Positions 4,113 to 61,226 of a stretch of 64,000 nucleotides of DNA are shown here, piece by piece. Under the pieces are notes generated by a model, which saw only the letters and a program-made list of their open reading frames with translations, was not told the DNA's origin and ran no database searches. Within the stretch, counting starts at the first letter, position 1. The number at the start of each line of letters is the position of its first letter. Position numbers and translations under genes: made by a program. This DNA is from Candidatus Omnitrophota bacterium (GTDB lineage Bacteria > Omnitrophota > Gorgyraeia > 2-01-FULL-45-10), in NCBI GenBank assembly GCA_041650935.1, contig JBAZKH010000002.1, forward strand, positions 128,372-192,371, written 5' to 3'.

Positions 4113-5063
4113 ATGAAGCATGGTCCGTATGAAATAGTGATAATAGGCGGCGGGCCCGCCGGCATGACGGCCGGGCTCTATGCCTGCAGGGCGAGGATGC
4201 GGACGCTTCTAGTCGAAAAGGCGCTCTGCGGCGGCCAGGTCCTAGTAGCCGACACCATCGAAAATTTTCCCGGATTTCCCGAAGGGATAAAGGGTCCGGA
4301 CCTTGCCGAGTGGATGTTCAAACAGGCATCCCGTTTTGGTCTTGAAGTGAAGACGTCGGAAGTTACAGGCATAGAGCCTAAGAAGACGGCCGCGGCGAAC
4401 TTCAAGGTGTGCCTCCAGGGCGGCGAGATTGTAGAAGCGCTCTCTTTGATAGTGGCGGCCGGCGCTAACTGGAACCATCTGAATATCCCCGGCGAGCAGA
4501 AACTTACCGGGCGGGGCGTATCCTATTGCGCGACATGCGACGGCCCGCTCTTTAAGGGTAAGGATGTAGCGGTGATAGGCGGCGGCGATACGGCGCTCGA
4601 GGATGCCATATTTCTTACGAAATTTGCCCGGAAAGTAACGGTCATACACAGACGCGACAAACTGCGGGCTACCAAAATATTGCAGGAGAGGGCGATTTCC
4701 AACAAAAAGATAGAATTTTGCCTGAATGCCGTTGCTGTAGAGATAAAAGGCTCTGCCAGGGTTGAGGCGGTAGCGGTAAAAGATGTCAGCACCGGTAAGC
4801 CGGCGGAAGTCAGGGCGGATGCGGTCTTCGTGCTCATCGGCACAGTGCCGAATTCGGAGATGGTGAAGGGCATGGTGAAGATGGACGATAAGAATTATAT
4901 ATTGACCGATGACCATATGCGTACTTCCGTAGACGGTATATTTGCCTGCGGCGATGTCAGGGGAAAGCTGTTGCGGCAGGTTTCGACGGCCGTGGGTGAC
5001 GGCGCAACCGCGGCTTTCAGCGCCGAACGTTACGTAGAGTCGATTAATGCCGGCGGAAAATGA
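4113..5063 (+). CDS. trxB: thioredoxin-disulfide reductase
   Basis: It has the FAD-binding GGGPAG, the redox-active CATCDG, the NADPH-binding GGGDTALE and the C-terminal GDV motif. Confidence 0.85.
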   Translation: MKHGPYEIVIIGGGPAGMTAGLYACRARMRTLLVEKALCGGQVLVADTIENFPGFPEGIKGPDLAEWMFKQASRFGLEVKTSEVTGIEPKKTAAANFKVCLQGGEIVEALSLIVAAGANWNHLNIPGEQKLTGRGVSYCATCDGPLFKGKDVAVIGGGDTALEDAIFLTKFARKVTVIHRRDKLRATKILQERAISNKKIEFCLNAVAVEIKGSARVEAVAVKDVSTGKPAEVRADAVFVLIGTVPNSEMVKGMVKMDDKNYILTDDHMRTSVDGIFACGDVRGKLLRQVSTAVGDGATAAFSAERYVESINAGGK

Positions 5064-5189
5064 TATTGACTTTAATCCGTCTTTCGTGATAATTTATTGC
5101 CTAAAGATTTGCCGATCCGTCTTCGCTTTTAAGACGCTTAGACTGTAGTAGAGCTTTGGTGAGATTCGGCGCCGGAGTGAAATTATAGT

Positions 5190-5264
5190 GCCGAGGTAGC
5201 TCAGTGGTAGAGCGCTGCGCTGAAAACGCAGGCGTGGGCAGTCCGATTCTGCCCCTCGGCACCA
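5190..5264 (+). tRNA. tRNA-Phe (anticodon GAA), encoded CCA
   Basis: The acceptor is gccgagg/cctcggc, the anticodon loop ctGAAaa, the T-arm ggcag-tccgatt-ctgcc. Confidence 0.85.
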
Positions 5265-5267
5265 TTT

Positions 5268-5302
5268 TGCTGCGCTCAAAGCTTTTCAGCTTTGAGCGCA
5301 GC
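5268..5302 (+). terminator. perfect 15-bp stem hairpin immediately after tRNA-Phe
   Basis: The sequence tgctgcgctcaaagc-ttttcag-gctttgagcgcagca forms the hairpin, and no strong U-tract follows it. Confidence 0.4.
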
Positions 5303-5406
5303 AGGAATATCCCCTACGAAGCCTTATCGGAAATTTCCGGATTAAAAGGCGAAGTAGGTATTTTTATGTCTACTTGTTAAGCATTAAAAAAGTAAGACGT
5401 TGATCC

Positions 5407-5445
5407 TTGACATCACGATACTATATGATATAGTTATATCATATA
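5407..5445 (+). promoter_or_regulatory. sigma70-like promoter (ttgaca-16-tatagt) overlapped by an 11-bp-arm inverted repeat
   Basis: The -35 ttgaca lies at 5407-5412 and the -10 tatagt at 5429-5434. The arms tatatgatata (5422-5432) and tatatcatata (5435-5445) are perfect reverse complements with a 2-bp spacer and form an operator-like site. Confidence 0.45.
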
Positions 5446-5476
5446 TTTGGTTAAGACAATACAAGTCTAGATAACT

Positions 5477-8400
5477 TTGTTTGGAGGCAAATTGGAAGCT
5501 TGCGGATCTAGGACCTCGTGTCTGAAGAATAGGCTATTCAAGGTAATAGTGTGCATTATTACCCTGGTAGCCTTTTTGTTTACTATAGTCCCGCCTGACA
5601 TGGCATGGGCATTAACAATGCCGCAAACCAAAGCTGTAAATTTTGCTCCAAAGGCCGCGCCGGCTATAACCGAAATTACCATTCCCGAATATCTCGGTGT
5701 GATTAAAGAGTCGTGGTCTCCTCAAAACACGCAAACACGCAAGTCCGACAACCCGCAAACTATAATACATATCCAGGATGCCCACTGTAACTATTATGCC
5801 CAATTACAGATAGCACGGATCGTTGGCTATCTGCAGGAGCGGTACGGCATAAGCCAGGTAAACCTGGAAGGCGGTAAGCGGGATTACGATCTCTCGGCCC
5901 TTACCGGGATCAAAGATGTGGGGCTGCGGGCTAAGGCGTTAGAACATTTTATGAAAGAAGGCGTAATTAACGGCGCCGAATATTTTGCCGCCAATAATCC
6001 GAAAAAGGCATCGCTCTGGGGGATCGAAGACACAGGGCTTTATATCGAAAATCTTAAAGTTTACCTGGATTCCCTGGCCGATAAAACGGCCATAGATAGG
6101 TACCTCAAAAATTTAACATCAGCTCTCTCGAACCTAAAGACGCGTATATATTCCAGGGACCTGATCACGCTTGACCGTCATCGGACGGCTTTCAAGAATA
6201 AAAAACTGGGGCTTAAAGAATACTTTAATTATTTGACCGGATTGTCATCGTCTCAAAATGTAGATACTTCAGACCTGACTAATATACAGATATTACTTAA
6301 GACGTTGACATTAGAAAAGGATATGGATTTCAAAGAGTCGAACGCCGAGAGAGAAGGGCTTATAGATAAGCTCGGGAAGGTGCTTTCCCGGGATGAAGTA
6401 AGGGAGCTGGTTGGAAAAGCCGTCGAATTTAGGACCGGGCGGATATCCGCCATAAAATTTCATTCATACCTGCTGGACAAAGCAAAAGAGCTGAAAATAC
6501 CCTCGGGAGAATACAAGAACCTCATCCTTTATACCGTATACCTGGGCGTCTATTCAAATCTCGATAACGATAAACTATTCGAAGAGGCCGGCGTTCTGGC
6601 AAGACGGGTCAGCGAAAAACTTTTCCAGGATACCGCCCAAAATGAGCTTTATAAACTTTCGGAAGATCTCGACATAATTAAGGATGTGCTGGAGATCGCG
6701 CTCACATCAGACGAGCACAAATATTTTAGAGATCATCGCGGCGAATTCGATATGAAGAATTATCTGGCATTTGTGAATGATAAAGCGCAGTTTTACGGGC
6801 TCAAACTCCGCCTCGGGGACGACATCCTGAAATTAAACGACCATCTGGAGCGGATGGAGAAATTTTATCTGATAGGCCTTGAGCGCGACGAGGCATTTAT
6901 TAAAAATCTCAAGTTCAATAGCAGGGGACGTTTAAACGTCCCCTACGCTGTGGATAACTCTAAGGCCGCTATCCTTATTACAGGCGGATTCCACGCAAAG
7001 AACCTCGCTGGACTATTTAAGAAAAAGAAGATATCCTACATATCGATCATGCCGAATTTTAAAGAGGAAGAAGGTTACGAGTGCCCGTACTTAAGTCTGC
7101 TATCGGGCAGGAAGAGGATCGTCCTGGCCAAGGAGGTAAAGAAGATCGCGGGCCAGTCACTTGCATACTGCAGTCAGCAAACATCGCTGGCGGATGATGT
7201 GAAGGGTTTAATGCCTGCCGCAAATATTGGGGTATCGTCCGCTACCTCTCCAATGCCGGATACCGTGGCATCCCCAAGCGTACCGTCCCCGACGATCATG
7301 TCCCGCATAAACGAGTTACTTAAAAATATCGTGAAGACATTATTCGGCGTCAGATTTAGCGCGGATCAGGAGAAGATAATACAAGCGGAGGCAAAAGAGG
7401 TTGTAGACATATTGCTGCCCGGTAAGGATACGGCTGAAAAAGGTAAGCGCGCGCAGGAATTGGCGGCAGCCGCTTCGCTAAACTCTATACCCGTAATGTT
7501 TATCAATACCTTAACCCGTCCTATTTCAGGCAGAGGGTTGCTGTGTATCATAGCCGCTGCCGGTATTATTACCGGTGGTTTTGCTGTGAATAGCTACAGT
7601 ATGCCCGCATTTCCAGAACTTCTTATTTGCTTTACGGCAGGTACCGCAGCCGTATGGGCCTTGATCTTTACGGGTACTTTTATAGAAGCGTGGAAGCCGC
7701 ATATAACGGTAGAGCGGGCATATATACCCGTGTTAGTGAGCCGTTCATTTTTCATAAATTCAACCGCGCATGAATTGACCCACCTTTTGAAACGCATGGA
7801 CTGTATACAGACAGACTTGCCGGCAGCTTCCGCGATAGGGACATTACGTGCGTTCGAAAGAGAGATGCTCGAAGGCAGCGATAAAGCGGGATTCGATTAT
7901 GGCCTGAGTGTCGAACGTGATAAAAAAATAAGCCCGGAAGAAAAACATGCCCAGCTTATAAGCTGGGCAAAACGAAGAGGCTGTTCCGGCAGCGAGGTCG
8001 AGCCGCCTTTTACCTATCCTTTGGGAGCCGCATTGGCCGGTTATGGCTATGCGCTCAGTCTCGAGACGGGTAATCCCGGCGATCCGAGGAAATTTATCTA
8101 TCTGATCTCAAAAGGTATATCTCCGCTGGAAGCGGAGCGCGCTATCAGATCAACCGCTTTCCAGTCCGGGCCCGAGGAAACGCCGCAAGCCGAATCTGCC
8201 AGGATCGACCTGCCTTTATTGGTAGAAGATTCGGAGCTCATGAAACGTCTTACCGCGATTAATGGCGGCAAGCGGCCGCATGTTATTAATATTTACGGGG
8301 GCCATGAAGATACTTTACCGGTACTTAAGGATGCTTTAAACGCCATCCCTCAGGACGAATCCGATGATTATATAGCGGTTACGCTGAAAAATACCGATAG

Positions 8401-9541
8401 CAGTACCGGCGTGACGACCTATTCCCTTATAGCCGACAGGGCAAGTTATATTATAAACGGCAAAACGGCAAACAATGAAAAATTACTTCACGCTATCTGG
8501 GCAGGACGTGCTGAGGTAGGGGCTTTTGAATTCGTCTTCCGGTTTTCGGTAGTTCCGGCCGATAATACCATAGCTATCGAATCGGTTTCGATCGGCAGGG
8601 TGTATACCGCGGACTTGCGGAGCAGACACCTTGTCTCCCGTTTCTTTAAGAATTTCGCGAAGACGCTGGAACAGAATTATCGCGGGATGGATATAACCGC
8701 GACATCCCTTGAAGATTTTCATGGCGCCGGAGTCCAGGTGATACCTTACTTGATGCGTAAATATTTCAGCGCACAGAAGCTGAAAAAAGAGAGCCCGGTC
8801 TATTCCGGGCGCGTGGGGAAGCGGCGATCGGTCTTTTCCCGCGCTAAAGATCCCAATGTTACCTGCGGGTCTTTCCACCCCGGGGTGGAAAATGCTATTT
8901 ATGAAGATGAGCAGGACGGGTTATTGCGCGCCGCGGGTGATGTGCTCGACAAAGTCCGGCCGATAAATCCGGAGGAAGAGTCACGCGTATTATTTATACC
9001 GATCGATATGAGCAAGCTGAGAGACTATTCGGCCCTGCGCGCCGACATAAAACACGCTTTCGGTATGGATTTTAGCAATATGAATACAATATTTTACGAC
9101 GGCACGGAAAGAGGCCTTATGGAAGCGGCTGCCGATCCGAAGTATGGCCTGAACAGGCCCGGCACTTTGGCGCTTGCGTATATAGATGAGAAAGCGATGA
9201 GCGGGGAGGCGGCGGAGTCCCATAATAAGAACAATGCCGCATTTAAGATAATACGCGAAGAGGCACCCCGGGGTGTCGCTAAAGACGAATTATTCATGCA
9301 TGTCGCGTTCGGTCTGCCGGTGCTCGACTACGTGAAAGGCAATTCAAACGAAACCCACATGATGGAGCTATGGAGCATCATAGAGCGGATGGTGAAAAAC
9401 CCGCGTGAATTGAAAAATAGCATAGAGACTCTCTTTAAAAAAGGTTTTATTCTGGCGCTTAAGAAGATAACGAAAATAAATATCAATAAGGAGATAGAAG
9501 ACGGAAAATATAACTTAAGGGAAGTGCTTACGAAAGCATAA
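5477..9541 (+). CDS. large orphan membrane protein (TraB/GumN/TIKI-like N-domain, Ser/Pro linker, two TM helices, C-domain with HExxH motif)
   Basis: It is a 4 kb open frame whose start is uncertain (TTG 5477, TTG 5492 after GGAGG, or GTG 5549). It has an N-terminal TM, the motifs IIHIQDAH and ILITGGFHAKNLAGLF that resemble TraB/GumN signatures, HELTH at nt 7768-7782, and no other recognisable domain. Confidence 0.6.
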   Translation: MFGGKLEACGSRTSCLKNRLFKVIVCIITLVAFLFTIVPPDMAWALTMPQTKAVNFAPKAAPAITEITIPEYLGVIKESWSPQNTQTRKSDNPQTIIHIQDAHCNYYAQLQIARIVGYLQERYGISQVNLEGGKRDYDLSALTGIKDVGLRAKALEHFMKEGVINGAEYFAANNPKKASLWGIEDTGLYIENLKVYLDSLADKTAIDRYLKNLTSALSNLKTRIYSRDLITLDRHRTAFKNKKLGLKEYFNYLTGLSSSQNVDTSDLTNIQILLKTLTLEKDMDFKESNAEREGLIDKLGKVLSRDEVRELVGKAVEFRTGRISAIKFHSYLLDKAKELKIPSGEYKNLILYTVYLGVYSNLDNDKLFEEAGVLARRVSEKLFQDTAQNELYKLSEDLDIIKDVLEIALTSDEHKYFRDHRGEFDMKNYLAFVNDKAQFYGLKLRLGDDILKLNDHLERMEKFYLIGLERDEAFIKNLKFNSRGRLNVPYAVDNSKAAILITGGFHAKNLAGLFKKKKISYISIMPNFKEEEGYECPYLSLLSGRKRIVLAKEVKKIAGQSLAYCSQQTSLADDVKGLMPAANIGVSSATSPMPDTVASPSVPSPTIMSRINELLKNIVKTLFGVRFSADQEKIIQAEAKEVVDILLPGKDTAEKGKRAQELAAAASLNSIPVMFINTLTRPISGRGLLCIIAAAGIITGGFAVNSYSMPAFPELLICFTAGTAAVWALIFTGTFIEAWKPHITVERAYIPVLVSRSFFINSTAHELTHLLKRMDCIQTDLPAASAIGTLRAFEREMLEGSDKAGFDYGLSVERDKKISPEEKHAQLISWAKRRGCSGSEVEPPFTYPLGAALAGYGYALSLETGNPGDPRKFIYLISKGISPLEAERAIRSTAFQSGPEETPQAESARIDLPLLVEDSELMKRLTAINGGKRPHVINIYGGHEDTLPVLKDALNAIPQDESDDYIAVTLKNTDSSTGVTTYSLIADRASYIINGKTANNEKLLHAIWAGRAEVGAFEFVFRFSVVPADNTIAIESVSIGRVYTADLRSRHLVSRFFKNFAKTLEQNYRGMDITATSLEDFHGAGVQVIPYLMRKYFSAQKLKKESPVYSGRVGKRRSVFSRAKDPNVTCGSFHPGVENAIYEDEQDGLLRAAGDVLDKVRPINPEEESRVLFIPIDMSKLRDYSALRADIKHAFGMDFSNMNTIFYDGTERGLMEAAADPKYGLNRPGTLALAYIDEKAMSGEAAESHNKNNAAFKIIREEAPRGVAKDELFMHVAFGLPVLDYVKGNSNETHMMELWSIIERMVKNPRELKNSIETLFKKGFILALKKITKININKEIEDGKYNLREVLTKA

Positions 9542-9631
9542 AGATTTTTTGCCCGGCCGGCACAAGGCGCGTTTTACGCTTCGCCGCAAGCGGCGTAATT
9601 CCGTGTCCTTACCGGCCGGGACTATGTTATA

Positions 9632-10147
9632 ATGGCTCCTATGAAAAACAGGACAGTCTTTAAGGGCAGGCTGCTTAATCTTTGTGTGAAGCGGATACGG
9701 CTGCCGAACGGTTATCTTGCCACATTCGAAACGGTAAAACACCCCGGCGCGGCATTAATAGTGCCGTTCCTTTCTAAAGACAAAATTATTTTATTAAGGC
9801 AATATAGGGCGGTTATCGGTTCCTACATCTACGAATTGCCCGCAGGCACTCTCGATAAGAACGAGTCGCCGCTTTCATGCGCTCGCCGCGAGATAGTCGA
9901 AGAAACCGGCCATTCAGCCAAAAAGTTAACATACCTCGGGAAGATATTCCCCGTTCCGGGTTATTCTACCGAATGCATACGGATCTACAAAGCGGAAGGG
10001 CTGCGTAAGGTGGAGCATATTGCCGAGAAAGACGAAGTCATCGACGCGCGCATAGTTACAAAACCCGCTATAAGGAAACTCTTCAAATCCGGCAGGATCA
10101 CCGACGCCAAGACGATAGCGGCGCTTGCCATGTGCGGTTGGTTATGA
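9632..10147 (+). CDS. NUDIX hydrolase (ADP-ribose pyrophosphatase-like)
   Basis: The Nudix box is GTLDKNESPLSCARREIVEETGH, and the protein is 171 aa. Confidence 0.75.
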   Translation: MAPMKNRTVFKGRLLNLCVKRIRLPNGYLATFETVKHPGAALIVPFLSKDKIILLRQYRAVIGSYIYELPAGTLDKNESPLSCARREIVEETGHSAKKLTYLGKIFPVPGYSTECIRIYKAEGLRKVEHIAEKDEVIDARIVTKPAIRKLFKSGRITDAKTIAALAMCGWL

Positions 10148-11385
10148 GCGAAAAGAAGAATATACGTCTCAGGTCCGGGAAGAAAGGCGTGCGCAAAGCA
10201 GGCCACCCGTGGATATTCAAAGGGCAGTTGACCAAGCTCGACCCCGCTATAAGGCCCGGCGATATAATTTCTATAACCGATGATAAGAATAAATTTATCG
10301 GCCGCGGTTACTACAATCCAAAATCCGAAATAGCAGTAAGATTGCTCACCTTTACCGACGAACCCATAAATAGAGACTTCTTTTACAAGAAGATCGCGGC
10401 GGCATTGAAGAGGCGCGAGCCTCTCTTGAATATCGGGGCAGGTTTAAACCTGCCCCACCGCAAAGGTATAACCAACGCTTACCGGGTAGTTTTCAGTGAA
10501 GCGGATGGCCTTCCGGGATTGATAGCGGATCTTTATAACGACACCGCCGTATTCCAGATACTTACCCTGGGCATGGAAAAGTTTAAGACCGAAATAGCGG
10601 ACGTCATAGACGATCTATTAAAACCAAAATATCTCTACGAAAAGAGCGCATCGCCATTCCGGAAGATCGAAGGGTTGAAGGATGTGACCGGCTGGTGGGG
10701 GGGCGAAGGCAAGGGTTTAGTCGAAATATCCGAAGGGAAAGTAAGATTCCTGGTCGATATAATAAACGGCCATAAGACGGGTTTCTATCTCGACCAGCGT
10801 AAGTCGCGCATCGCGTTAGAAGGCATATCCAGGGGTAAGGACGTACTCGACCTTTTCTGTTACACGGGCGGGTTTTCCGTAAGCGCGGCGATATCCGGCG
10901 CCCGTCGTGTCATCGGGGTGGATATCAAGGAAGACTGGTTAAATCTTGCCCGGGAGAATGCGCGCCTTAACGGCGTCCATGAAAAGACGGAGTTTGTGAA
11001 GGGCGACTCTTTTGCGGTACTGAAGGATATGAGTGGTTCGGGCAAGAAGTTCGACATCATAGCGCTCGACCCGCCGTCGTTTTTGAAAGGCAGGGAATCG
11101 CGCGTCACCGCGGCCAGAGGTTACCGGGAGCTGAACTCTCTTGCCATGAAGTCGCTCTCCGGCGGTGGGATCCTTGCGACGTTCTCATGCTCCCATAATA
11201 TGCCTAACGAACTCTTCTCAAAGGTCATAAAGGAATCCGCTGATGCGGCCGGCAGGAAATTTACGATACTCAAGCGCTGCCGTCAGGCAGAAGATCATCC
11301 GATCGTTAAAGGGATCCCGGAGACTGAGTACCTAAAAGGATACTTTCTTAAAATGGAAAGTAATATAATAAAGGAAAAAGGGTAG
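10132..11385 (+). CDS. rlmI: class I SAM-dependent rRNA (cytosine-C5) methyltransferase, RlmI-like (PUA + MTase)
   Basis: It has the N-terminal PUA-like region, GFS/FSY-type SAM-binding segments, the DPPSF motif, and is 417 aa. Confidence 0.7.
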   Translation: MRLVMSEKKNIRLRSGKKGVRKAGHPWIFKGQLTKLDPAIRPGDIISITDDKNKFIGRGYYNPKSEIAVRLLTFTDEPINRDFFYKKIAAALKRREPLLNIGAGLNLPHRKGITNAYRVVFSEADGLPGLIADLYNDTAVFQILTLGMEKFKTEIADVIDDLLKPKYLYEKSASPFRKIEGLKDVTGWWGGEGKGLVEISEGKVRFLVDIINGHKTGFYLDQRKSRIALEGISRGKDVLDLFCYTGGFSVSAAISGARRVIGVDIKEDWLNLARENARLNGVHEKTEFVKGDSFAVLKDMSGSGKKFDIIALDPPSFLKGRESRVTAARGYRELNSLAMKSLSGGGILATFSCSHNMPNELFSKVIKESADAAGRKFTILKRCRQAEDHPIVKGIPETEYLKGYFLKMESNIIKEKG

Positions 11386-24016: not shown

Positions 24017-24092
24017 GCTGGCGTAGCTCAGTTGGTAGAGCAGCGGTTTCGTAAACCGCAGGTCAGTGGTTCGAATCCACCCGCCAGCTCCA
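24017..24092 (+). tRNA. tRNA-Thr (anticodon CGU), encoded CCA
   Basis: The acceptor is gctggcg/cgccagc, the anticodon loop ttCGTaa, the T-arm ggttcgaatcc. Confidence 0.85.
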
Positions 24093-24285
24093 TAATATCA
24101 AGTCAGACGGACTTTAATTATAATATCCGTCTGTGTGGGTGAGAACCAGAAAAAGGATTTTAAGGAAAAAACTATAGTTTTTTCCTTATCGGCGCACTAG
24201 AACATCTTTGCGGAAGAAAGAAAAATATTAAAAGGAAAACATCAGGTTTTCCTTTTAAGGAGCGAAGGCGTTAGCTGAAGCGACG

Positions 24286-29934: not shown

Positions 29935-30279
29935 TTGTCAATTATAGGCGATGGCCTTCGGCGGGTGTATCCGCCGAAGGCCATCGGTTTGGTTATGGAT
30001 GGACGTCGAAGGCGGATAGGTTCTGCCAGGGTCTGGCTCGTAATAGCGGTGCTGGTCGTGATATTCCTGCCGCCGTTCGCGAAGTATCAGGAGCTGAAAT
30101 ACAAGAATAGGAAACTCGAAGAGCGGATAGTGGGCCTCAAGGTCGAGAACGAGCAGCTTGCGGAAGAGAAGAGAAAGCTCGAAACGGATATAGGTTATGT
30201 CGAAAAGAAGGCCCGCGAAAAGATCGGCGTTGTCCGCAAAGGCGAGATAGTGCTAAAAGAAGTGAATGTGAAGAAATAA
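29935..30279 (+). CDS. septum formation initiator (FtsB/DivIC-like)
   Basis: It is 114 aa with a TM followed by a coiled-coil (ELKYKNRKLEERIVGLKVENEQL). Confidence 0.55.
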   Translation: MSIIGDGLRRVYPPKAIGLVMDGRRRRIGSARVWLVIAVLVVIFLPPFAKYQELKYKNRKLEERIVGLKVENEQLAEEKRKLETDIGYVEKKAREKIGVVRKGEIVLKEVNVKK

Positions 30280-36204: not shown

Positions 36205-36246
36205 AGACAGCCTGGCTACCGAAGATGGTAGTCGGGCTATTTTTTT
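36205..36246 (+). terminator. putative expression-platform terminator of the riboswitch
   Basis: A hairpin agcctggctacc-gaag-atggtagtcgggct is followed by atttttttgg. It re-uses the gacagcctgg segment of the aptamer. Confidence 0.45.
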
Positions 36247-36299
36247 GGGTACTTAGCTTAAAGATTTTAAAACTATTTTCAAAAATGGAGGGTGCATAC

Positions 36300-39200
36300 A
36301 TGAAGACTAAAATGATAATTACTTTCTTGCCCCTCCTGATTTTTATTTTTCTAGTTTCGATATCGAGCGCCGCGGATGACATCAGAAGCTCTAACAAAAA
36401 TCCCGGCCTTGTCCAAAAGATACGTATACCCGGTCCCGCCGCAGACGGCGCAATCAAGGGATTCCAGACACAGGTAAATATGGCACGCTCGCTCTCCTGT
36501 GCCTCCGCCGATAACGGAGGCTTCTCCGAGTTAATGGACGAATCCGCCGCGGATACCAATAAAGAGGCTTCCGCTACCCCCGCATATAAACCCGGCGAGA
36601 TTATAGTAAAGGTAAAAGAGGGTTATAGCGTCTCCGATTTAGACAGCTTAAACACCCAATATAATGCCGCCTCTCCTCAGAAAGCGTTCCCGATGTATGT
36701 GGAACCGCAGGAAAAGCTGGATACGCTTAAGAAAGAGCTTGCCGATCTTTCGGAAGGCCATAACTCCTGGTACTGGCAGCTCGATAAGAATTCCGATGAA
36801 TATAAGAAATATGAAGAGAGATTAGCGGCCGAAAAGAAAGCCCTGGCCGATCAGATAAAGAGAGAGGCCGAAACAGTCGCAAGGTTCGAGGCTTATAATG
36901 CAGAATGCGTCGATGGCGGTTCCACAACGCCCGGCCTGGAAAGGATATATCTATTAAAGCTCGATTCATCAGTAGATCCTAAACAGCTTGCGGCCATATA
37001 TGGAGCAGACCCGGCGGTAGAATATGCCCACCCTAACTATATAGCAAGAATCAATATGATACCCAACGATACTTATTATGCCTCATCGGGCGCCTGGAAA
37101 CAGCCCTTCAGAGACCTGTGGGGTGTAGTAAAGACGCAGGCCGATAAGGCGTGGGACACGACTCAGGGAGAAGGGGTTGTCGTCGCCGTATCCGATACAG
37201 GAGTAGACTATAACCATCCCGACCTTAAGGCCAATATGTGGAAAGATAAGAACGGCAGCTGTGGCTATAACTTCGTAGCTGATAACACAGATCCTATGGA
37301 CGACTTTGGCCACGGTACACACTGCGCAGGCACCATTGCCGCTGTCGGCAATAATAATATAGGTATTATCGGTATTGCCCCCAAGGCAAAGATAATGGCT
37401 GTAAAAGGGCTTGATAATACTGGCAGCGGCTATATGAGCGATCTGGCTCAAACCATCCAATACGCAGCCGACAACGGAGCTGATGTCATAAGCTGCAGCT
37501 GGGGCGGCCCGGAGGATTCTGAAGATTCCGACTGCATGCTTCTTTGCGATACCGTCCGCTATGCGACCAATATAAGAAATAGTGTTGTTGTTGCGGCCGC
37601 GGGTAATGATGATATGAACGTCGGGTCTTATAACATTTACCCGGCCAATATAAAAGAAGTCATAACAGTCGCCGCATCCACTTCGGAGGATAAAAAGGCA
37701 GAATTCTCCAATTATGGCGCAAAGATAGATGTGTCGGCACCCGGCGGCGGGGATATAGGAGGCAAACATCCCGAACGCTCCATACTCTCTCTCAAGGCGT
37801 CTTTAGCCGTACCCGATATACTGGGCGGTAAAAGCGCCCCTCTCGTTATAGGGGGTAATTACCTGCGCCAGGCCGGCACCTCCATGGCATGTCCGCACGT
37901 TTCCGGTGTCGCGGCCCTCGTCAAGAGCCTGCATCGCGACTTTACGCCTGAGCAAGTCCGCCAGGCTATCCGCGCCGGGAGCGATGATATACTTTACGCC
38001 GGTTTCGATACTTACTCAGGTTACGGAAGAGTTAACGCGTTAGGGGCAATCTCCATTTTACCCATTGCGCCGGTGATAATAGAGCCGTCTGTAAGACAGT
38101 GGGACAACGCGGATACTATCCCTATCAAATTCACGGTTAAAGGAAGCAATGTCGCAAGCTGGAAGATAGAATATAGTGATGTTAAGAGCACCTGGAGGAT
38201 CCTTACCCAAGGAACGGGCCCCGTCAATACCCCGGCGGTTTTCGATTGGGATATCCGGGCCATTCCCGACGGTCCCAGGACCATACGTCTGGTAGCTGTA
38301 AATAGCCAGGGGAAAATATTCGAAAGTAAAACGGATATCTATAATAACCATGTAACCGTTACGAAACCGCAAAACCATTTTTCCGATAATTATTACGGCC
38401 CCGGGAAAAATGTCGTAATCGAAGGGACCGTTAATCCTTATGGACTCACCTCATATACGCTGAGTATTTATAAACTCGAAGAAGACGCAAGCTTCGTACC
38501 TGGTAAATTTATTGGCTATACCTCGGGAAAATCTATTCCGGTAGAAAATACCGTGGTTAACTTAGCCAATGGCGGCAAGGCCCCGGTCATAAACGGCCGC
38601 ATTGCGGAATGGGATATAAGGAATATCCCGGCGGGATATTACAGAATCCAACTTAATGTTTTTACGCAGACATCCGGCACTAGTCCTACCACAAGGAAGG
38701 TCATGGTCGAGGTGGATCCTTCTCTTCATCCCGGCTGGCCTCTGCATATCCCGATTATGACCGATGGCGGCTGGACAAGCCCTCCCGTCAACATATTTAC
38801 TGCCGCCGATATCAATGGCGACGGCCGTGACGAGATACTGTTTAACTATAGCGGCCAGATAAACGTCATGGACTCTAACGGCGCCTCATTGCCAGGCTGG
38901 CCCAGGACATTTGCTTCCGCAGGCGATACCAGCCAGAACGGAGTAACTATAGGCGACGTGATGGGTACCGGCAAGCCGCAGATCATAGTCGGGACTTGCG
39001 GCGGGCAGATACACCTTTTTGACCGGGCGGGGAACCTTGTCAAAAAATTTCCTGAAGGCTCACGCTCCAGTTATGGCGTAAATCCGGCCGTGGCAGTATC
39101 AGATATAGACATGGACGGAAAGAATGAAATGGTAATAACCGCAGGCATGAACCTATACGTCGTAGGCCGGGACGGCGAAAAATGGTCGGAAGAACTGTCC

Positions 39201-40967
39201 GCGACTCACGAGCCCGGAGAGAACTGTCTATTCCAACCGACAGTCGCCGACCTGGACGGTAACGGAGAAAAAGAGATCATTGTGCAGTCGATGTTCTACG
39301 GTAACGAGATACATGTATTCGACTGCAAAGGAAATATAATGCATGGCTGGCCGAAAAAGCTTTGTCCGCCATCCTGGTACTGGGATGGATACAGTTCTGC
39401 CCCAATCGCCGCGGATGTAGACAAAGACGGCATACTGGAGATACTCACGGCCGCAAACAATAATAAAATCTATATCTTTAAGCCGGACGGCACTATCCTG
39501 GCCGGATGGCCCCTGCAATTCGATATAAATGACATCTTGACGTTAGGCCAAATTGTCGTAGGAGACCTGGATAAAGACGGTAATATTGAGATTGTGGTAG
39601 GGGGACCCCGTATCGTACAAGGTTGGAATAGCAAAGTAGGAAACGTTTTATACGTTTTCCGTGCCAACGGCACTGTATATAACAGCGCCTGGCCCGTTTG
39701 CCGCATGCCAAACGGCTTCGGCGTAACCTGGGTTTATGGTCTTACACCCACCTTAGCCGATATAAATAATGACGGCCTGCCGGAGATCATTATTAACGGC
39801 GTTGCCGACTTTTTCAGAGGGGAGTCCTTTAACGTTTATGATATTAACGGTCGTGAAATTAAGGAGCTTCGCAAGCCTATTTTAGGGTTTACAGCCTGGC
39901 CTGCGAATTGTCCGGTTGTAGGTGATTTTTCAGGCAGCGGTAAAAATCAGATCCTGTGGCTTGCTCGCGGCTATGTTTGTGAAGAAAGCTCCAGGAACAC
40001 AGTTTTTTATAGCTCCAGTTATTATGATATGTACCTGTGGAACACCGATACGCCTTCGACTAATCCCAGGCCCTGGCCCATGTTCCACTGCGACTCCCGG
40101 CATGCGGGGGCTATACCTGCAAATGTCGCCAGCCCGTTTAAAGCGCCTTCGGATTTGCGCGTAATAAATAACACAAGCACGATGGTGGAGTTGTCGTGGA
40201 AGAATAATTCCGCGTTGATAACGGACTTTGAGATCGAAAGGAAAGCGGCCGTTGGCGGCGCATATGCCAAGATAGACGAAGTGAAGGCTAAAAATACCTC
40301 TTACAAGGACAAGAAAGTCCCGTCAGGAGTGACATGCTTTTACAGGGTCCGCGCGGCCAAGGGCAGCGCTTACCGGTCGAAATATTCGAACGAAGTAAAT
40401 GTGGATACCGTCCTGCCCGGGCCATCCGGTCTTACCGCGACCGCCGTATCATCCATGCAGATAAATCTTGCCTGGTTAGATAACTCTAAGGATGAAAGAA
40501 AATTCTGTGTAGAGCGGAAGACCGGCGCCGGCGGTACGTATGTCGAAATACACAGGACAGCTTCCAACCACGCTAACTATAAAGACAATAGGGCCATTCC
40601 CGGCACGACATACTACTACAGGGTCCGCGCGATAAATAAAAAAGGCGCTTATTCCGAGTATTCGGATGTGGCGAGCGCTATAACTTTGCTGCCTGCGCCG
40701 TCCGGACTTACCGCGACCGCCATATCGAAGAAAGCGATAAAGCTTTACTGGACGGATAATTCCAAAGACGAGAAAAATTTCCTTATCGAAAGAAAGCTGG
40801 GCGCTAACGGCACTTATGCCCAGATCCATAAAACGGGTCCCAAAGATAACGATTATAAGGATACTCAGCTAAGCGCGGGAACGACTTACTATTACAGGGT
40901 CCGCGTAGTCAATAAAAGCGCTTATTCAGAATATTCGAACGAAGCGCACGCTGCCACAAATAGATAG
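36300..40967 (+). CDS. secreted subtilisin-like serine protease (S8) fused to FG-GAP/VCBS beta-propeller repeats and three C-terminal fibronectin type III domains
   Basis: A start at 36300 (MKTKMIITFLPLL... signal peptide, GGAGGG 6 nt upstream) is preferred over the track start 36225. The catalytic triad motifs are DTGVDYNHPDL, HGTHCAGTIAA and GTSMACPHVSG. It has multiple DxDGDG/FG-GAP repeats and three roughly 86-aa FN3 units. Confidence 0.8.
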   Translation: MKTKMIITFLPLLIFIFLVSISSAADDIRSSNKNPGLVQKIRIPGPAADGAIKGFQTQVNMARSLSCASADNGGFSELMDESAADTNKEASATPAYKPGEIIVKVKEGYSVSDLDSLNTQYNAASPQKAFPMYVEPQEKLDTLKKELADLSEGHNSWYWQLDKNSDEYKKYEERLAAEKKALADQIKREAETVARFEAYNAECVDGGSTTPGLERIYLLKLDSSVDPKQLAAIYGADPAVEYAHPNYIARINMIPNDTYYASSGAWKQPFRDLWGVVKTQADKAWDTTQGEGVVVAVSDTGVDYNHPDLKANMWKDKNGSCGYNFVADNTDPMDDFGHGTHCAGTIAAVGNNNIGIIGIAPKAKIMAVKGLDNTGSGYMSDLAQTIQYAADNGADVISCSWGGPEDSEDSDCMLLCDTVRYATNIRNSVVVAAAGNDDMNVGSYNIYPANIKEVITVAASTSEDKKAEFSNYGAKIDVSAPGGGDIGGKHPERSILSLKASLAVPDILGGKSAPLVIGGNYLRQAGTSMACPHVSGVAALVKSLHRDFTPEQVRQAIRAGSDDILYAGFDTYSGYGRVNALGAISILPIAPVIIEPSVRQWDNADTIPIKFTVKGSNVASWKIEYSDVKSTWRILTQGTGPVNTPAVFDWDIRAIPDGPRTIRLVAVNSQGKIFESKTDIYNNHVTVTKPQNHFSDNYYGPGKNVVIEGTVNPYGLTSYTLSIYKLEEDASFVPGKFIGYTSGKSIPVENTVVNLANGGKAPVINGRIAEWDIRNIPAGYYRIQLNVFTQTSGTSPTTRKVMVEVDPSLHPGWPLHIPIMTDGGWTSPPVNIFTAADINGDGRDEILFNYSGQINVMDSNGASLPGWPRTFASAGDTSQNGVTIGDVMGTGKPQIIVGTCGGQIHLFDRAGNLVKKFPEGSRSSYGVNPAVAVSDIDMDGKNEMVITAGMNLYVVGRDGEKWSEELSATHEPGENCLFQPTVADLDGNGEKEIIVQSMFYGNEIHVFDCKGNIMHGWPKKLCPPSWYWDGYSSAPIAADVDKDGILEILTAANNNKIYIFKPDGTILAGWPLQFDINDILTLGQIVVGDLDKDGNIEIVVGGPRIVQGWNSKVGNVLYVFRANGTVYNSAWPVCRMPNGFGVTWVYGLTPTLADINNDGLPEIIINGVADFFRGESFNVYDINGREIKELRKPILGFTAWPANCPVVGDFSGSGKNQILWLARGYVCEESSRNTVFYSSSYYDMYLWNTDTPSTNPRPWPMFHCDSRHAGAIPANVASPFKAPSDLRVINNTSTMVELSWKNNSALITDFEIERKAAVGGAYAKIDEVKAKNTSYKDKKVPSGVTCFYRVRAAKGSAYRSKYSNEVNVDTVLPGPSGLTATAVSSMQINLAWLDNSKDERKFCVERKTGAGGTYVEIHRTASNHANYKDNRAIPGTTYYYRVRAINKKGAYSEYSDVASAITLLPAPSGLTATAISKKAIKLYWTDNSKDEKNFLIERKLGANGTYAQIHKTGPKDNDYKDTQLSAGTTYYYRVRVVNKSAYSEYSNEAHAATNR

Positions 40968-60910: not shown

Positions 60911-60977
60911 TTGACAGAAATTACGGTTATGATATACTCTCTACTTAGAGAGTAAGTGGTTACTCTCTAAGTAGAGA
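60911..60977 (+). promoter_or_regulatory. sigma70-like promoter (ttgaca-16-tatact) overlapped by a perfect 18-bp-arm inverted repeat (operator)
   Basis: The arm tctctacttagagagtaa lies at 60938-60955, the spacer gtgg follows, and the arm ttactctctaagtagaga lies at 60960-60977. Confidence 0.55.
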
Positions 60978-60983
60978 GTGGAT

Positions 60984-61226
60984 ATGGAAGATAAAAATAT
61001 ATACCTGATAAAAGACTTATCCCGCCTTTCAGGATTATCTGTCTACACAATCAAATATTATCTAAATCTTGGGCTTATAAAAGAGATCTCCAGGAGCCAG
61101 GAGACCAACTTCAGGTATTTCGATGATTCCACTCTCGAAAAATTGAATAAAATAATAAATCTGCGCCGCAACAAAACACCCTTAAAGAAGATATACCATT
61201 TACTGACCGGGTCAGTAAATGGTTAG
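60984..61226 (+). CDS. MerR-family-like HTH regulator
   Basis: An ATG start at 60984 is preferred over GTG 60978. The HTH is IKDLSRLSGLSVYTIKYYLNLGLI. Confidence 0.5.
   Translation: MEDKNIYLIKDLSRLSGLSVYTIKYYLNLGLIKEISRSQETNFRYFDDSTLEKLNKIINLRRNKTPLKKIYHLLTGSVNG

Follow-up and report, generated by a model that had tools for sequence, protein, structure and literature searches.

Members of the TIKI superfamily, which has been met in Wnt inactivation, in the control of pheromones, in resistance to macrolides and in MARTX toxins, are built on a core of five parallel strands flanked by helices. The Omnitrophota are uncultured, ultra-small bacteria that encode many very long and mostly unannotated proteins, and they are suspected of a predatory or parasitic life. 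The gene analysed here was found in a Candidatus Omnitrophota bacterium (assembly GCA_041650935.1), in a stretch of 64,000 nucleotides of contig JBAZKH010000002.1 (positions 128,372 to 192,371) that is termed the window and whose own numbering is used for all positions. It codes for a large exported protein whose amino terminal domain, the head, may belong to the TIKI superfamily. TIKI proteins share a parallel-sheet core with a "2His/2Glu" set of residues and a conserved basic residue near the active site; these positions are E3900, H3902, E3930, R4001 and H4030 in RRSP, a TIKI-fold protease and MARTX effector, while the pair H85/E113 was defined in Bcr135 (PMC6254334). The giant Omnitrophota proteins are described as having amino terminal regions without identifiable domains, or peptidase domains (C39 or S8) which were proposed to cut the polyprotein (West-Roberts et al. 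2023, 10.1101/2023.11.21.568195). A second preprint reports that the long proteins of the phylum mostly combine a signal peptide with transmembrane (TM) helices and reads them as extracellular effectors (10.64898/2026.06.07.730766).

The gene codes for a compact representative of a multi-copy family of modular exported proteins; this family is large, lacks annotation and is nearly confined to Omnitrophota. Every member of this family begins with a conserved signal peptide followed by a head domain of ~480 residues, and the protein studied has both, its head carrying the invariant D-x-H, E, R and GG-x-H residues. An earlier note on this DNA had described the product as an orphan membrane protein of 1354 amino acids (aa). 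The open reading frame (ORF) exists as given, with a TTG start, but the protein is no orphan. A word-indexed search yielded 93 homologous proteins (E 1e-16 to 1e-164, 786-2369 aa), nearly all of them from Candidatus Omnitrophota, and 433 loci encoding a relative, again nearly all in this phylum, were located with two head-domain peptide patterns in one genome per GTDB species. The part common to the homologues corresponds to aa ~20-545 (24-45% identity in BLASTP), the remainder varying from protein to protein. Among the 80 loci listed of the 433, many assemblies hold two to four copies, and the complete 1.43-Mb chromosome CP070780.1 has at least two. Records titled "uncultured Planctomycetia" are also found among the loci and a few relatives come from Elusimicrobia/Endomicrobia (Elusimicrobiota). 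A search with the seven most divergent heads added three further Elusimicrobia proteins only, and no bridge to a named family. In one contig (CAZGOG010000026.1, 14058-27927) two family genes, loci L052 and L072, are adjacent, which points to tandem duplication within the family. No paralogue was detected by tblastn elsewhere in the window.

Domain libraries do not recognise the conserved blocks of these proteins. Scans of the whole protein against Pfam, NCBIfam and PADLOC gave no match and PHROGs gave a single negligible one; no Pfam or NCBIfam match was found among the 27 family members scanned, or with insertion-deleted cores. Sequence and profile searches of the Protein Data Bank (PDB), for which the queries were the full-length protein and profiles of the amino terminal domain and of modules A, B and C, returned nothing below E 0.18. 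The architecture was resolved by an exhaustive phmmer search, BLASTP, MAFFT alignments and hidden Markov models (HMMs) built from these alignments. Residue numbers follow the 1354-aa ORF throughout, even though a start at 5492 is preferred (see below). The organization of the protein is the following:

5477..9541, + strand: longest ORF, 1354 aa from a TTG codon.
5477..5611, + strand (aa 1-45): signal peptide, with a basic n-region, a hydrophobic core and A-W-A.
5672..7111, + strand (aa ~66-545): head domain, delimited by homology and by the AlphaFold2 (AF2) model.
7205..7294, + strand (aa 577-606): linker rich in Ser, Pro, Thr and Ala (63% S, P, T or A).
7313..8161, + strand (aa ~613-895): module A, a helical domain with a TM hairpin insertion and HExxH.
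8174..8866, + strand (aa ~900-1130): module B, which recurs in ~20 proteins.
8903..9538, + strand (aa ~1143-1354): module C, the carboxyl terminal cap domain.

The Ser/Pro-rich linker announced in the earlier note is thus present, and the predicted local distance difference test score (pLDDT) is low at the end of the amino terminal domain model, toward this linker. The carboxyl terminal region had been described in the same note as having no recognisable domain. It indeed matches nothing in Pfam or the PDB, but it resolves into three separate conserved modules: when aa 735-1354 served as the phmmer query, 53 matches were obtained, distributed in three non-overlapping groups. In all proteins retrieved the head is amino terminal and module C occupies the extreme carboxyl terminus. 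Together they bracket proteins of 1,025, 1,033, 1,398, 1,455, 1,742, 2,168, 2,174, 3,084, 4,385, 5,235 and 5,935 aa; across the family the head is followed by differing sets of modules in proteins of 800 to ~5,900 aa. In P0003, P0106 (4,407 aa) and P0130 the head is joined directly to module A, the junction between modules A and B is found in P0108, P0135 and P0142, and that between B and C in P0097, P0123 and P0131. Because identical module junctions occur in independent proteins, a fusion artefact, which the earlier note had kept in mind, is excluded. The middle parts of relatives carry a variety of known domains (M50 peptidase, S-adenosylmethionine (SAM) methyltransferases, CheR, HATPase_c, protein kinase, FHA, metallophosphoesterase, phosphoglucomutase, GT39, GNAT, NERD, signal peptidase II and TPR). 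In the giants P0104 (3084 aa), P0127 (4385 aa) and P0109 (5235 aa), SAM methyltransferases, CheR, protein kinase and signal peptidase II domains are positioned between the head and module C.

Modules B and C have no match in Pfam or in PDB sequences. As many as three copies of module B occur in a single protein, P0103. Its homologues have in common D987, F1023, S1038 and the motif S-I-G-R....R-G-x-G-h, at which position the protein studied has RSRHL. A GNAT identity was considered for module B but is not supported: there is no Pfam or PDB match and RSRHL replaces the R-G-x-G motif that resembles an acetyl-CoA loop. No fold could be assigned to this module. Module C is terminal in all 27 relatives (27-48% identity) and conserves R1161, R1170, FYDGT1206-1210, Y1235, E1261, H1275 and D1284; it looks like an enzyme or a ligand-binding alpha/beta domain.

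The most conserved parts of the protein are the two amino terminal motifs that had been singled out in the earlier note, both of which are present in the head. Conservation was counted over 105 head domains aligned to the family HMM. The residues of the putative centre are:

5777..5785, + strand: D101-A-H103 of HIQDAH, acid and His with a putative catalytic role, where a core strand ends.
5867..5869, + strand: E131 of NLEGG, 28 residues after H103.
6884..6886, + strand: R470 of ERD (RN in some divergent members).
6983..6994, + strand: G503-G-F-H506, second His motif, after a core strand (model residues 452-459).

D101, H103, Q109, E131, G132 and R470 are found in 105/105 sequences, and H506, E168 and E184 in 104/105, the one sequence without H506 having a gap there. 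H98, the first His of the motif as originally drawn, is kept in only 95/105. The invariant residues persist at overall identities as low as 24%. An AF2 model built from a 27-sequence alignment (pLDDT 81; predicted template modelling score, pTM, 0.77) has a small alpha/beta core, formed by aa 66-190 and 470-530 and divided by a wholly helical insertion of ~290 aa (aa 186-476). Short strands with flanking helices are located at model residues 30-36, 50-57, 83-86, 90-92, 135-139, 452-459 and 476-482, and the insertion consists of an uninterrupted run of ~14 helices (model residues 142-432). Each conserved residue directly follows a strand, H103 coming immediately after strand 50-57, with the exception of R470, which is at the end of the long helix preceding the last two strands.

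This arrangement recalls the TIKI superfamily (Tiki1/2, TraB/PrgY/GumN PF01963, EreA/B, Bcr135/136, ChaN, RRSP, PMT C1/C2), the nearest known relation for the head, in which the residues come in the same order: strand 1 is followed by an acid-x-His, strand 2 by a Glu located 26-28 residues further on and a third strand by another Glu; a helix then closes with an Arg (R-N or R-D), and G-x-x-His comes behind a late strand. Ten TraB/GumN proteins taken as reference (Escherichia coli YbaP and nine plasmid-borne ones) show the series strand-GS(I)H, strand-E, KPV.ELE, (E/D)RN..W and strand-VGA.HL.G; the series IIHIQDAH, VNLEGG, LWGIED, ERDEAF and ILITGGFHAKNL of the head has the same order and secondary-structure setting, as a match of motifs only. 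The spacing of 28 residues between H103 and E131 equals those of H3902-E3930 in RRSP and H85-E113 in Bcr135. The head has the TIKI residue set, the basic residue and the ~28-residue His-Glu spacing, with Asp in place of the first Glu. R470 and H506 are 36 residues apart; in the published signature the second His comes ~30 residues after the basic residue. The likeness extends to the small predicted parallel alpha/beta core with helical additions and to the location of many TIKI members, which are secreted or membrane-tethered. There are also differences. The helical insertion that splits the head core is ~290 aa long versus ~70 aa at this place in TraB/GumN, the head has additional invariant residues (Q100, Q109, C104, E168 and the GG before the last His), and it forms the amino terminal part of multi-kiloresidue modular proteins. 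We infer, on good grounds though short of proof, that the TIKI/EreA/ChaN/TraB hydrolase superfamily includes the head as a divergent member, with the predicted centre listed above. Other candidates were tried and discarded. A calcineurin-type metallophosphoesterase was considered since IHIQDAH resembles its D-x-H motif, but the strands of the model are too few for it and the fold matches include no such structure; the "DAHxD" of arginases and deacetylases has the wrong motif order; an SMC/Rad50-like split head would require Walker motifs, which are absent.

Module A, which is common to P0003, P0106, P0130, P0135 and others (25-38% identity), carries the second set of conserved residues. It begins with a conserved helical segment F..xQxxII..EA..VVDxLL (aa 613-660), followed by a hydrophobic pair and HELTH; further conserved elements are P.AS..G, G809, E842-P-x-x-T-Y and G..LAG.G.AL...TG.P.D...FI.L...G..P..AE. 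The features of interest are:

7529..7675, + strand (aa 685-733): two hydrophobic helices, read as a TM hairpin (Kyte-Doolittle 1.92 and 1.90).
7769..7783, + strand: H765-E-L-T-H769, HExxH in 13/13 homologues covering the position.
8000..8002, + strand: E842 of EPxxTY, candidate third metal ligand, invariant in alignment A5.

E842, 73 residues downstream of HExxH, is found in 12/15 sequences, the remaining three being fragments. In an AF2 model built with 15 sequences (pLDDT 82, pTM 0.74) the flanks (model residues 21-66 and 141-290) have pLDDT above 90 and the hairpin 57-69. The hairpin helices correspond to model residues 80-101 and 107-126, and HExxH is inside the helix 151-168. The model is nearly all helical, its sole beta structure being a two-strand ribbon. 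The TM pair mentioned in the earlier note is thus confirmed, and since the hairpin is an insertion in one soluble helical domain both its ends must be on the same side of the membrane. The HExxH motif is under selection, and metal binding by it is probable. Module A resembles, by analogy only, the M48 (HtpX/Ste24), M56 (BlaR1) and M50 (site-2) proteases in having an HExxH helix directly after TM helices and a conserved Glu ~70 residues downstream. It differs in matching none of them in Pfam or among PDB sequences, in having an almost wholly helical predicted structure where a two-strand ribbon takes the place of the zincin sheet, and in that Foldseek retrieves none of them; profile searches of the PDB were equally negative. 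Of the zincin-type motif proposed initially, the invariant HELTH in a helix and the downstream Glu therefore stand, whereas a zincin fold is not supported, no metallopeptidase being matched among solved structures.

In all 64 complete family amino termini a basic n-region (mean net charge +4) precedes a hydrophobic core, and in 40 of them A-x-A comes a few residues after the core. The family consensus is ..TLxAFLxN....DxAWA. This is read as a Sec-type signal peptide with predicted cleavage. The head is therefore predicted to be outside the cytoplasm and, with the hairpin further on, modules A, B and C would be outside too. The n-region is long and conserved ("M.DARSN...(R/K)PFKV" in P0003, P0008, P0012, P0101, P0104, P0109 and others); in its unusual length it is reminiscent of the extended signal peptides by which other bacteria mark dedicated export routes.

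From these features it is proposed that the protein is exported and tethered by the hairpin, its head being a TIKI-like His/Glu hydrolase and an HExxH/Glu site near the membrane forming a second centre; to this reading we give somewhat better than even credence. Export would be by Sec, after which the hairpin of module A would keep the protein on the outer side of the cytoplasmic membrane. In the head, D101-x-H103, E131, R470 and H506 on the parallel alpha/beta core would constitute a His/Glu centre in which an activated water cleaves a peptide or ester bond, with the 290-aa helical insertion acting as a lid or recognition element on the core. Module A would set a second, probably metal-dependent centre (H765-E-x-x-H769 with E842) beside the membrane. 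The substrates may, speculatively, be other exported or envelope proteins or the protein itself, in the latter case for maturation or release of the downstream modules.

Several results weigh against this proposal. The head has no statistically significant link to any known family by sequence, profile or fold. No match to PF01963, PF04187 or PF05139 was found at E <= 10 with the protein, with 27 members or with six insertion-deleted cores, and the PDB profile search with the head found nothing. Alignment by hhalign to the TraB/GumN profile gave P 0.27-0.28 with the 27-sequence profile and 0.05-0.14 with the 105-sequence profile. One best alignment, obtained with an insertion-deleted core, speaks for the proposal in that it pairs ERDEAF...ITGGFH with RN..W...VGALH of TraB, and another is in a different register; the family profile gave nothing against YbaP as a single sequence. 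Among 350,542 PDB chains Foldseek found no match to the head below E 0.04. The Ere-family TIKI-fold protein Bcr135 appears at ranks 3 (3b55, E 0.18) and 15 (2rad, E 0.39), with TM-scores of 0.16-0.21; its presence is in favour of the proposal, as the rest of the list is made of long helical bundles. The TraB/GumN-like domain put forward in the earlier note thus holds for motif order and predicted topology and finds no backing in PF01963, hhalign or Foldseek scores. For the module A model the best Foldseek match, again among 350,542 PDB chains, has E 0.42 and no peptidase is in the top 50. As to topology, K/R residues are present on both outer flanks of the hairpin, so that the positive-inside rule, read directly on the sequence, weakly favours the opposite orientation. 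In P0104 a SAM methyltransferase directly follows the head without a TM segment between them; methyltransferases, kinases and FHA domains on the side of an exported head fit a purely periplasmic housekeeping role poorly. The same conflict is noted for the long Omnitrophota proteins in the 2026 preprint (10.64898/2026.06.07.730766). One resolution is that these cytoplasm-type enzymes of the relatives may act in another cell.

The control region and the start of the gene have the following features:

5407..5434, + strand: promoter-like site TTGACA-16-TATAGT with a TG extension, by consensus match only (11/12, the best in 5050-9800).
5422..5445, no strand assigned: perfect inverted repeat TATATGATATA-GT-TATATCATATA with 11-nucleotide arms (5422-5432 and 5435-5445), centred on the -10 hexamer.
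5483..5487, + strand: GGAGG ribosome-binding site, 4 nucleotides before TTG 5492, read directly from the sequence.

The second TTG, at 5492, is a likelier start codon than TTG 5477. It is preferred because of the GGAGG spacing, because the resulting 1349-aa product is equal to the JGI/ENA call (P0001/P0148) and because the length of its amino terminus agrees with those of the homologues. The NCBI record MFA5143316.1 ("hypothetical protein, Candidatus Omnitrophota bacterium") has 1307 aa starting at M48, which would delete the conserved signal peptide. The gene is located, as previously noted, between tRNA-Phe (5190-5264), followed by a strong terminator-like hairpin (5268-5303), and a NUDIX ORF (9632-10147). 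That it is monocistronic could not be confirmed: the next genes are on the same strand, 90 nucleotides downstream, with only weak terminator-like sites between. The NUDIX ORF and the following PUA/SAM methyltransferase ORF (10132-11385) overlap by 16 nucleotides, which suggests that the two are coupled in translation within an operon lying downstream of the large gene. Housekeeping genes make up the neighbourhood (LptF/G permease, thioredoxin-reductase-type flavoprotein, NUDIX, PUA-SAM methyltransferase, TauE, glutamine amidotransferase) and the guanine-plus-cytosine content of the ORF, 0.43-0.52, is in line with theirs.

Both the promoter-like site and the perfect repeat over it had been reported in the earlier note and are found as described; the repeat is unique in the window and was obtained in 0/100 shuffles. 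The position of this palindrome would suit an operator. With the predicted promoter in use, its left arm would be upstream of the transcript start, so that the repeat would act as DNA and not as an RNA hairpin. Repression is otherwise without support. The palindrome does not recur elsewhere in the window, which also lacks a small regulator with a matching site, and no conserved sequence or operator was found at this position upstream of relatives. The 18-nucleotide AT-rich core occurs in more than 119 unrelated metagenome contigs, none of which encodes the family. Perfect inverted repeats with arms of at least 8 nucleotides are present within 200 nucleotides upstream of 12/62 family genes versus 2.3% of shuffles, in five loci within ~50 nucleotides of the start. 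This excess is largely general to intergenic DNA because of terminators.

Alternatively, the protein could be a secreted multi-effector like polymorphic toxins or MARTX, the constant ends serving export, delivery or autoprocessing, the middle modules being payloads that act in or on another cell, in keeping with the suspected predatory or parasitic life of the phylum, and the hairpin inserting in the target membrane. This overlaps with the hydrolase proposal, since the head could be the processing protease. MARTX and polymorphic toxins are alike in architecture only: constant ends bracket variable enzymatic modules, and MARTX has both an internal protease and the TIKI-fold effector RRSP. The family has such constant ends around a highly variable middle of 1 to 5.9 kaa, several different paralogues per genome, and enzymes with cytoplasmic cofactors behind a Sec signal, sometimes without any TM segment between. 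The readings in the two preprints, extracellular effectors and amino terminal peptidases that cut a polyprotein, go in the same direction. However, the protein has no RTX repeats, cysteine protease domain, type I secretion system (T1SS) or immunity genes and uses an amino terminal Sec signal rather than a carboxyl terminal T1SS signal. No toxin, immunity or secretion-system gene adjoins it, its neighbours being LptF/G, thioredoxin reductase, tRNA-Phe, NUDIX and an rRNA-type methyltransferase genes. PADLOC gave no match to it and PHROGs only the negligible one, and modules A-C have no known toxic activity. We consider a multi-effector rather unlikely for this gene, though the foremost alternative. 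Slightly less credible, and speculative, is a broader view of head and module C as the marks of phylum-wide "capped" exported polyproteins, in which a Sec signal and a TIKI-like amino terminal protease would export, and afterwards cut or activate, freely exchangeable enzyme modules; as these require cytoplasmic cofactors they would act inside prey or host, the cap serving for delivery or docking. A different possibility is that the head is a non-catalytic, ligand-binding domain and the protein an extracytoplasmic sensor or scaffold, that is, a membrane-tethered receptor or envelope organiser coupled in relatives to kinase, methyltransferase or HATPase outputs. The helical bundle makes 60% of the head, the top Foldseek matches, all insignificant, include the periplasmic sensors McpZ, TorS and PilJ, and some relatives do carry HATPase_c, kinase, FHA or CheR. 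The strand ends nevertheless bear absolutely conserved residues (an Asp, an Arg, two His and three Glu), a pattern of active sites and not of sensors; many members lack a TM segment between head and "output" domains, and every fold match has E above 0.04. These points make a sensor or scaffold improbable.

Less probable still is the reading of the earlier note, an orphan membrane-embedded zincin protease under a dedicated repressor bound at the palindrome over the -10 box. The invariant HExxH with a downstream Glu beside a TM hairpin, the unique perfect repeat on the -10 hexamer and the frequency of inverted repeats upstream of family genes speak for it. The number of homologues, the absence of any metallopeptidase match to the module A model, the lack of a second palindrome or candidate repressor in the window, the absence of the palindrome sequence upstream of relatives, its recurrence in unrelated contigs and the general enrichment of intergenic inverted repeats speak against it. 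An artefact, either a fused or frameshifted frame or a decaying pseudogene, could be suspected from the great length of the gene, the rare TTG start, the missing database annotation and the several perfect palindromes inside the ORF. The identical product in three independent sources, the module junctions in unrelated proteins, the intact catalytic-type residues, two confident models and a composition as in the neighbouring genes make this barely credible.

A number of palindromes were observed besides that of the promoter. A GC-rich perfect palindrome centred on GTTTAAAC recurs across Omnitrophota genomes. The form GGGCAGGTTTAAACCTGCCC is identical in the window at 10435-10456, inside the methyltransferase ORF 10132-11385, and in locus L006 (2818-2845), and has one mismatch in L036 (736-755). 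The 1354-aa ORF itself contains the variant AGGGGACGTTTAAACGTCCCCT, at 6923-6944, which codes there for the variable loop SRGRLNVPY that immediately precedes the GGFH strand. Further palindromes centred on GTTTAAAC are found in L023 (2822-2843) and L037 (2803-2830). Four of the seven GTTTAAAC sites in 549 kb are in palindromes of at least 22 nucleotides, versus none in 461 kb of unrelated contigs, and in other genomes these palindromes lie within ~200 nucleotides of family-gene starts. A dispersed palindromic element is one possibility, a protein-binding site another. Two more perfect palindromes are inside the ORF, TGCCCAGCTTATAAGCTGGGCA at 7948-7969 and TTTCCACCCCGGGGTGGAAA at 8872-8891; with that at 6923-6944 this makes three of at least 20 nucleotides in one 4-kb coding sequence, for a naive chance expectation of ~0.01. 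Other strong perfect inverted repeats of the window, with arms of 13-20 nucleotides, are at 24161-24188, 24228-24258, 29949-29986, 60936-60979 and 61195-61223, two of them just after tRNA-Thr (24017-24092). Note that the window codes for another large exported protein, of 1580 aa (36225-40967, + strand), which is unrelated to the 1354-aa protein and has a fervidolysin-like prodomain, an S8 subtilase domain, FG-GAP/beta-propeller repeats and three fibronectin type III domains.

Compared with the giant and other long exported proteins of Omnitrophota, to which it is closest when taken as a whole, the protein belongs to the same phylum, has a signal peptide together with TM helices, and is a mosaic of enzyme modules; its modules A, B and C recur in proteins of 3,000-7,176 aa. 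At 1,349 aa it is far under the thresholds for "giant" proteins, and its gene is in a housekeeping neighbourhood instead of among secretion or pilus genes. The head and modules A-C are not named in the accessible parts of the 2023 and 2026 preprints on these proteins. What is new is the delineation of four unannotated modules, the bracket formed by head and cap, and the active-site-like signature of the head. The four conserved blocks are unrecognised by Pfam, NCBIfam and PADLOC (with one negligible PHROGs match), and the head is found in hundreds of genes, several per genome. Should the head turn out not to be a TIKI-type hydrolase, the gain would still be the correction of the start codon and four new domain families. 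If the view of capped exported polyproteins were true, this 1,349-aa gene would be their minimal natural version and the easiest to express. If the head is a TIKI-type hydrolase, it would add a large bacterial branch to the superfamily and give a handle on how the large proteins of Omnitrophota are matured and used.

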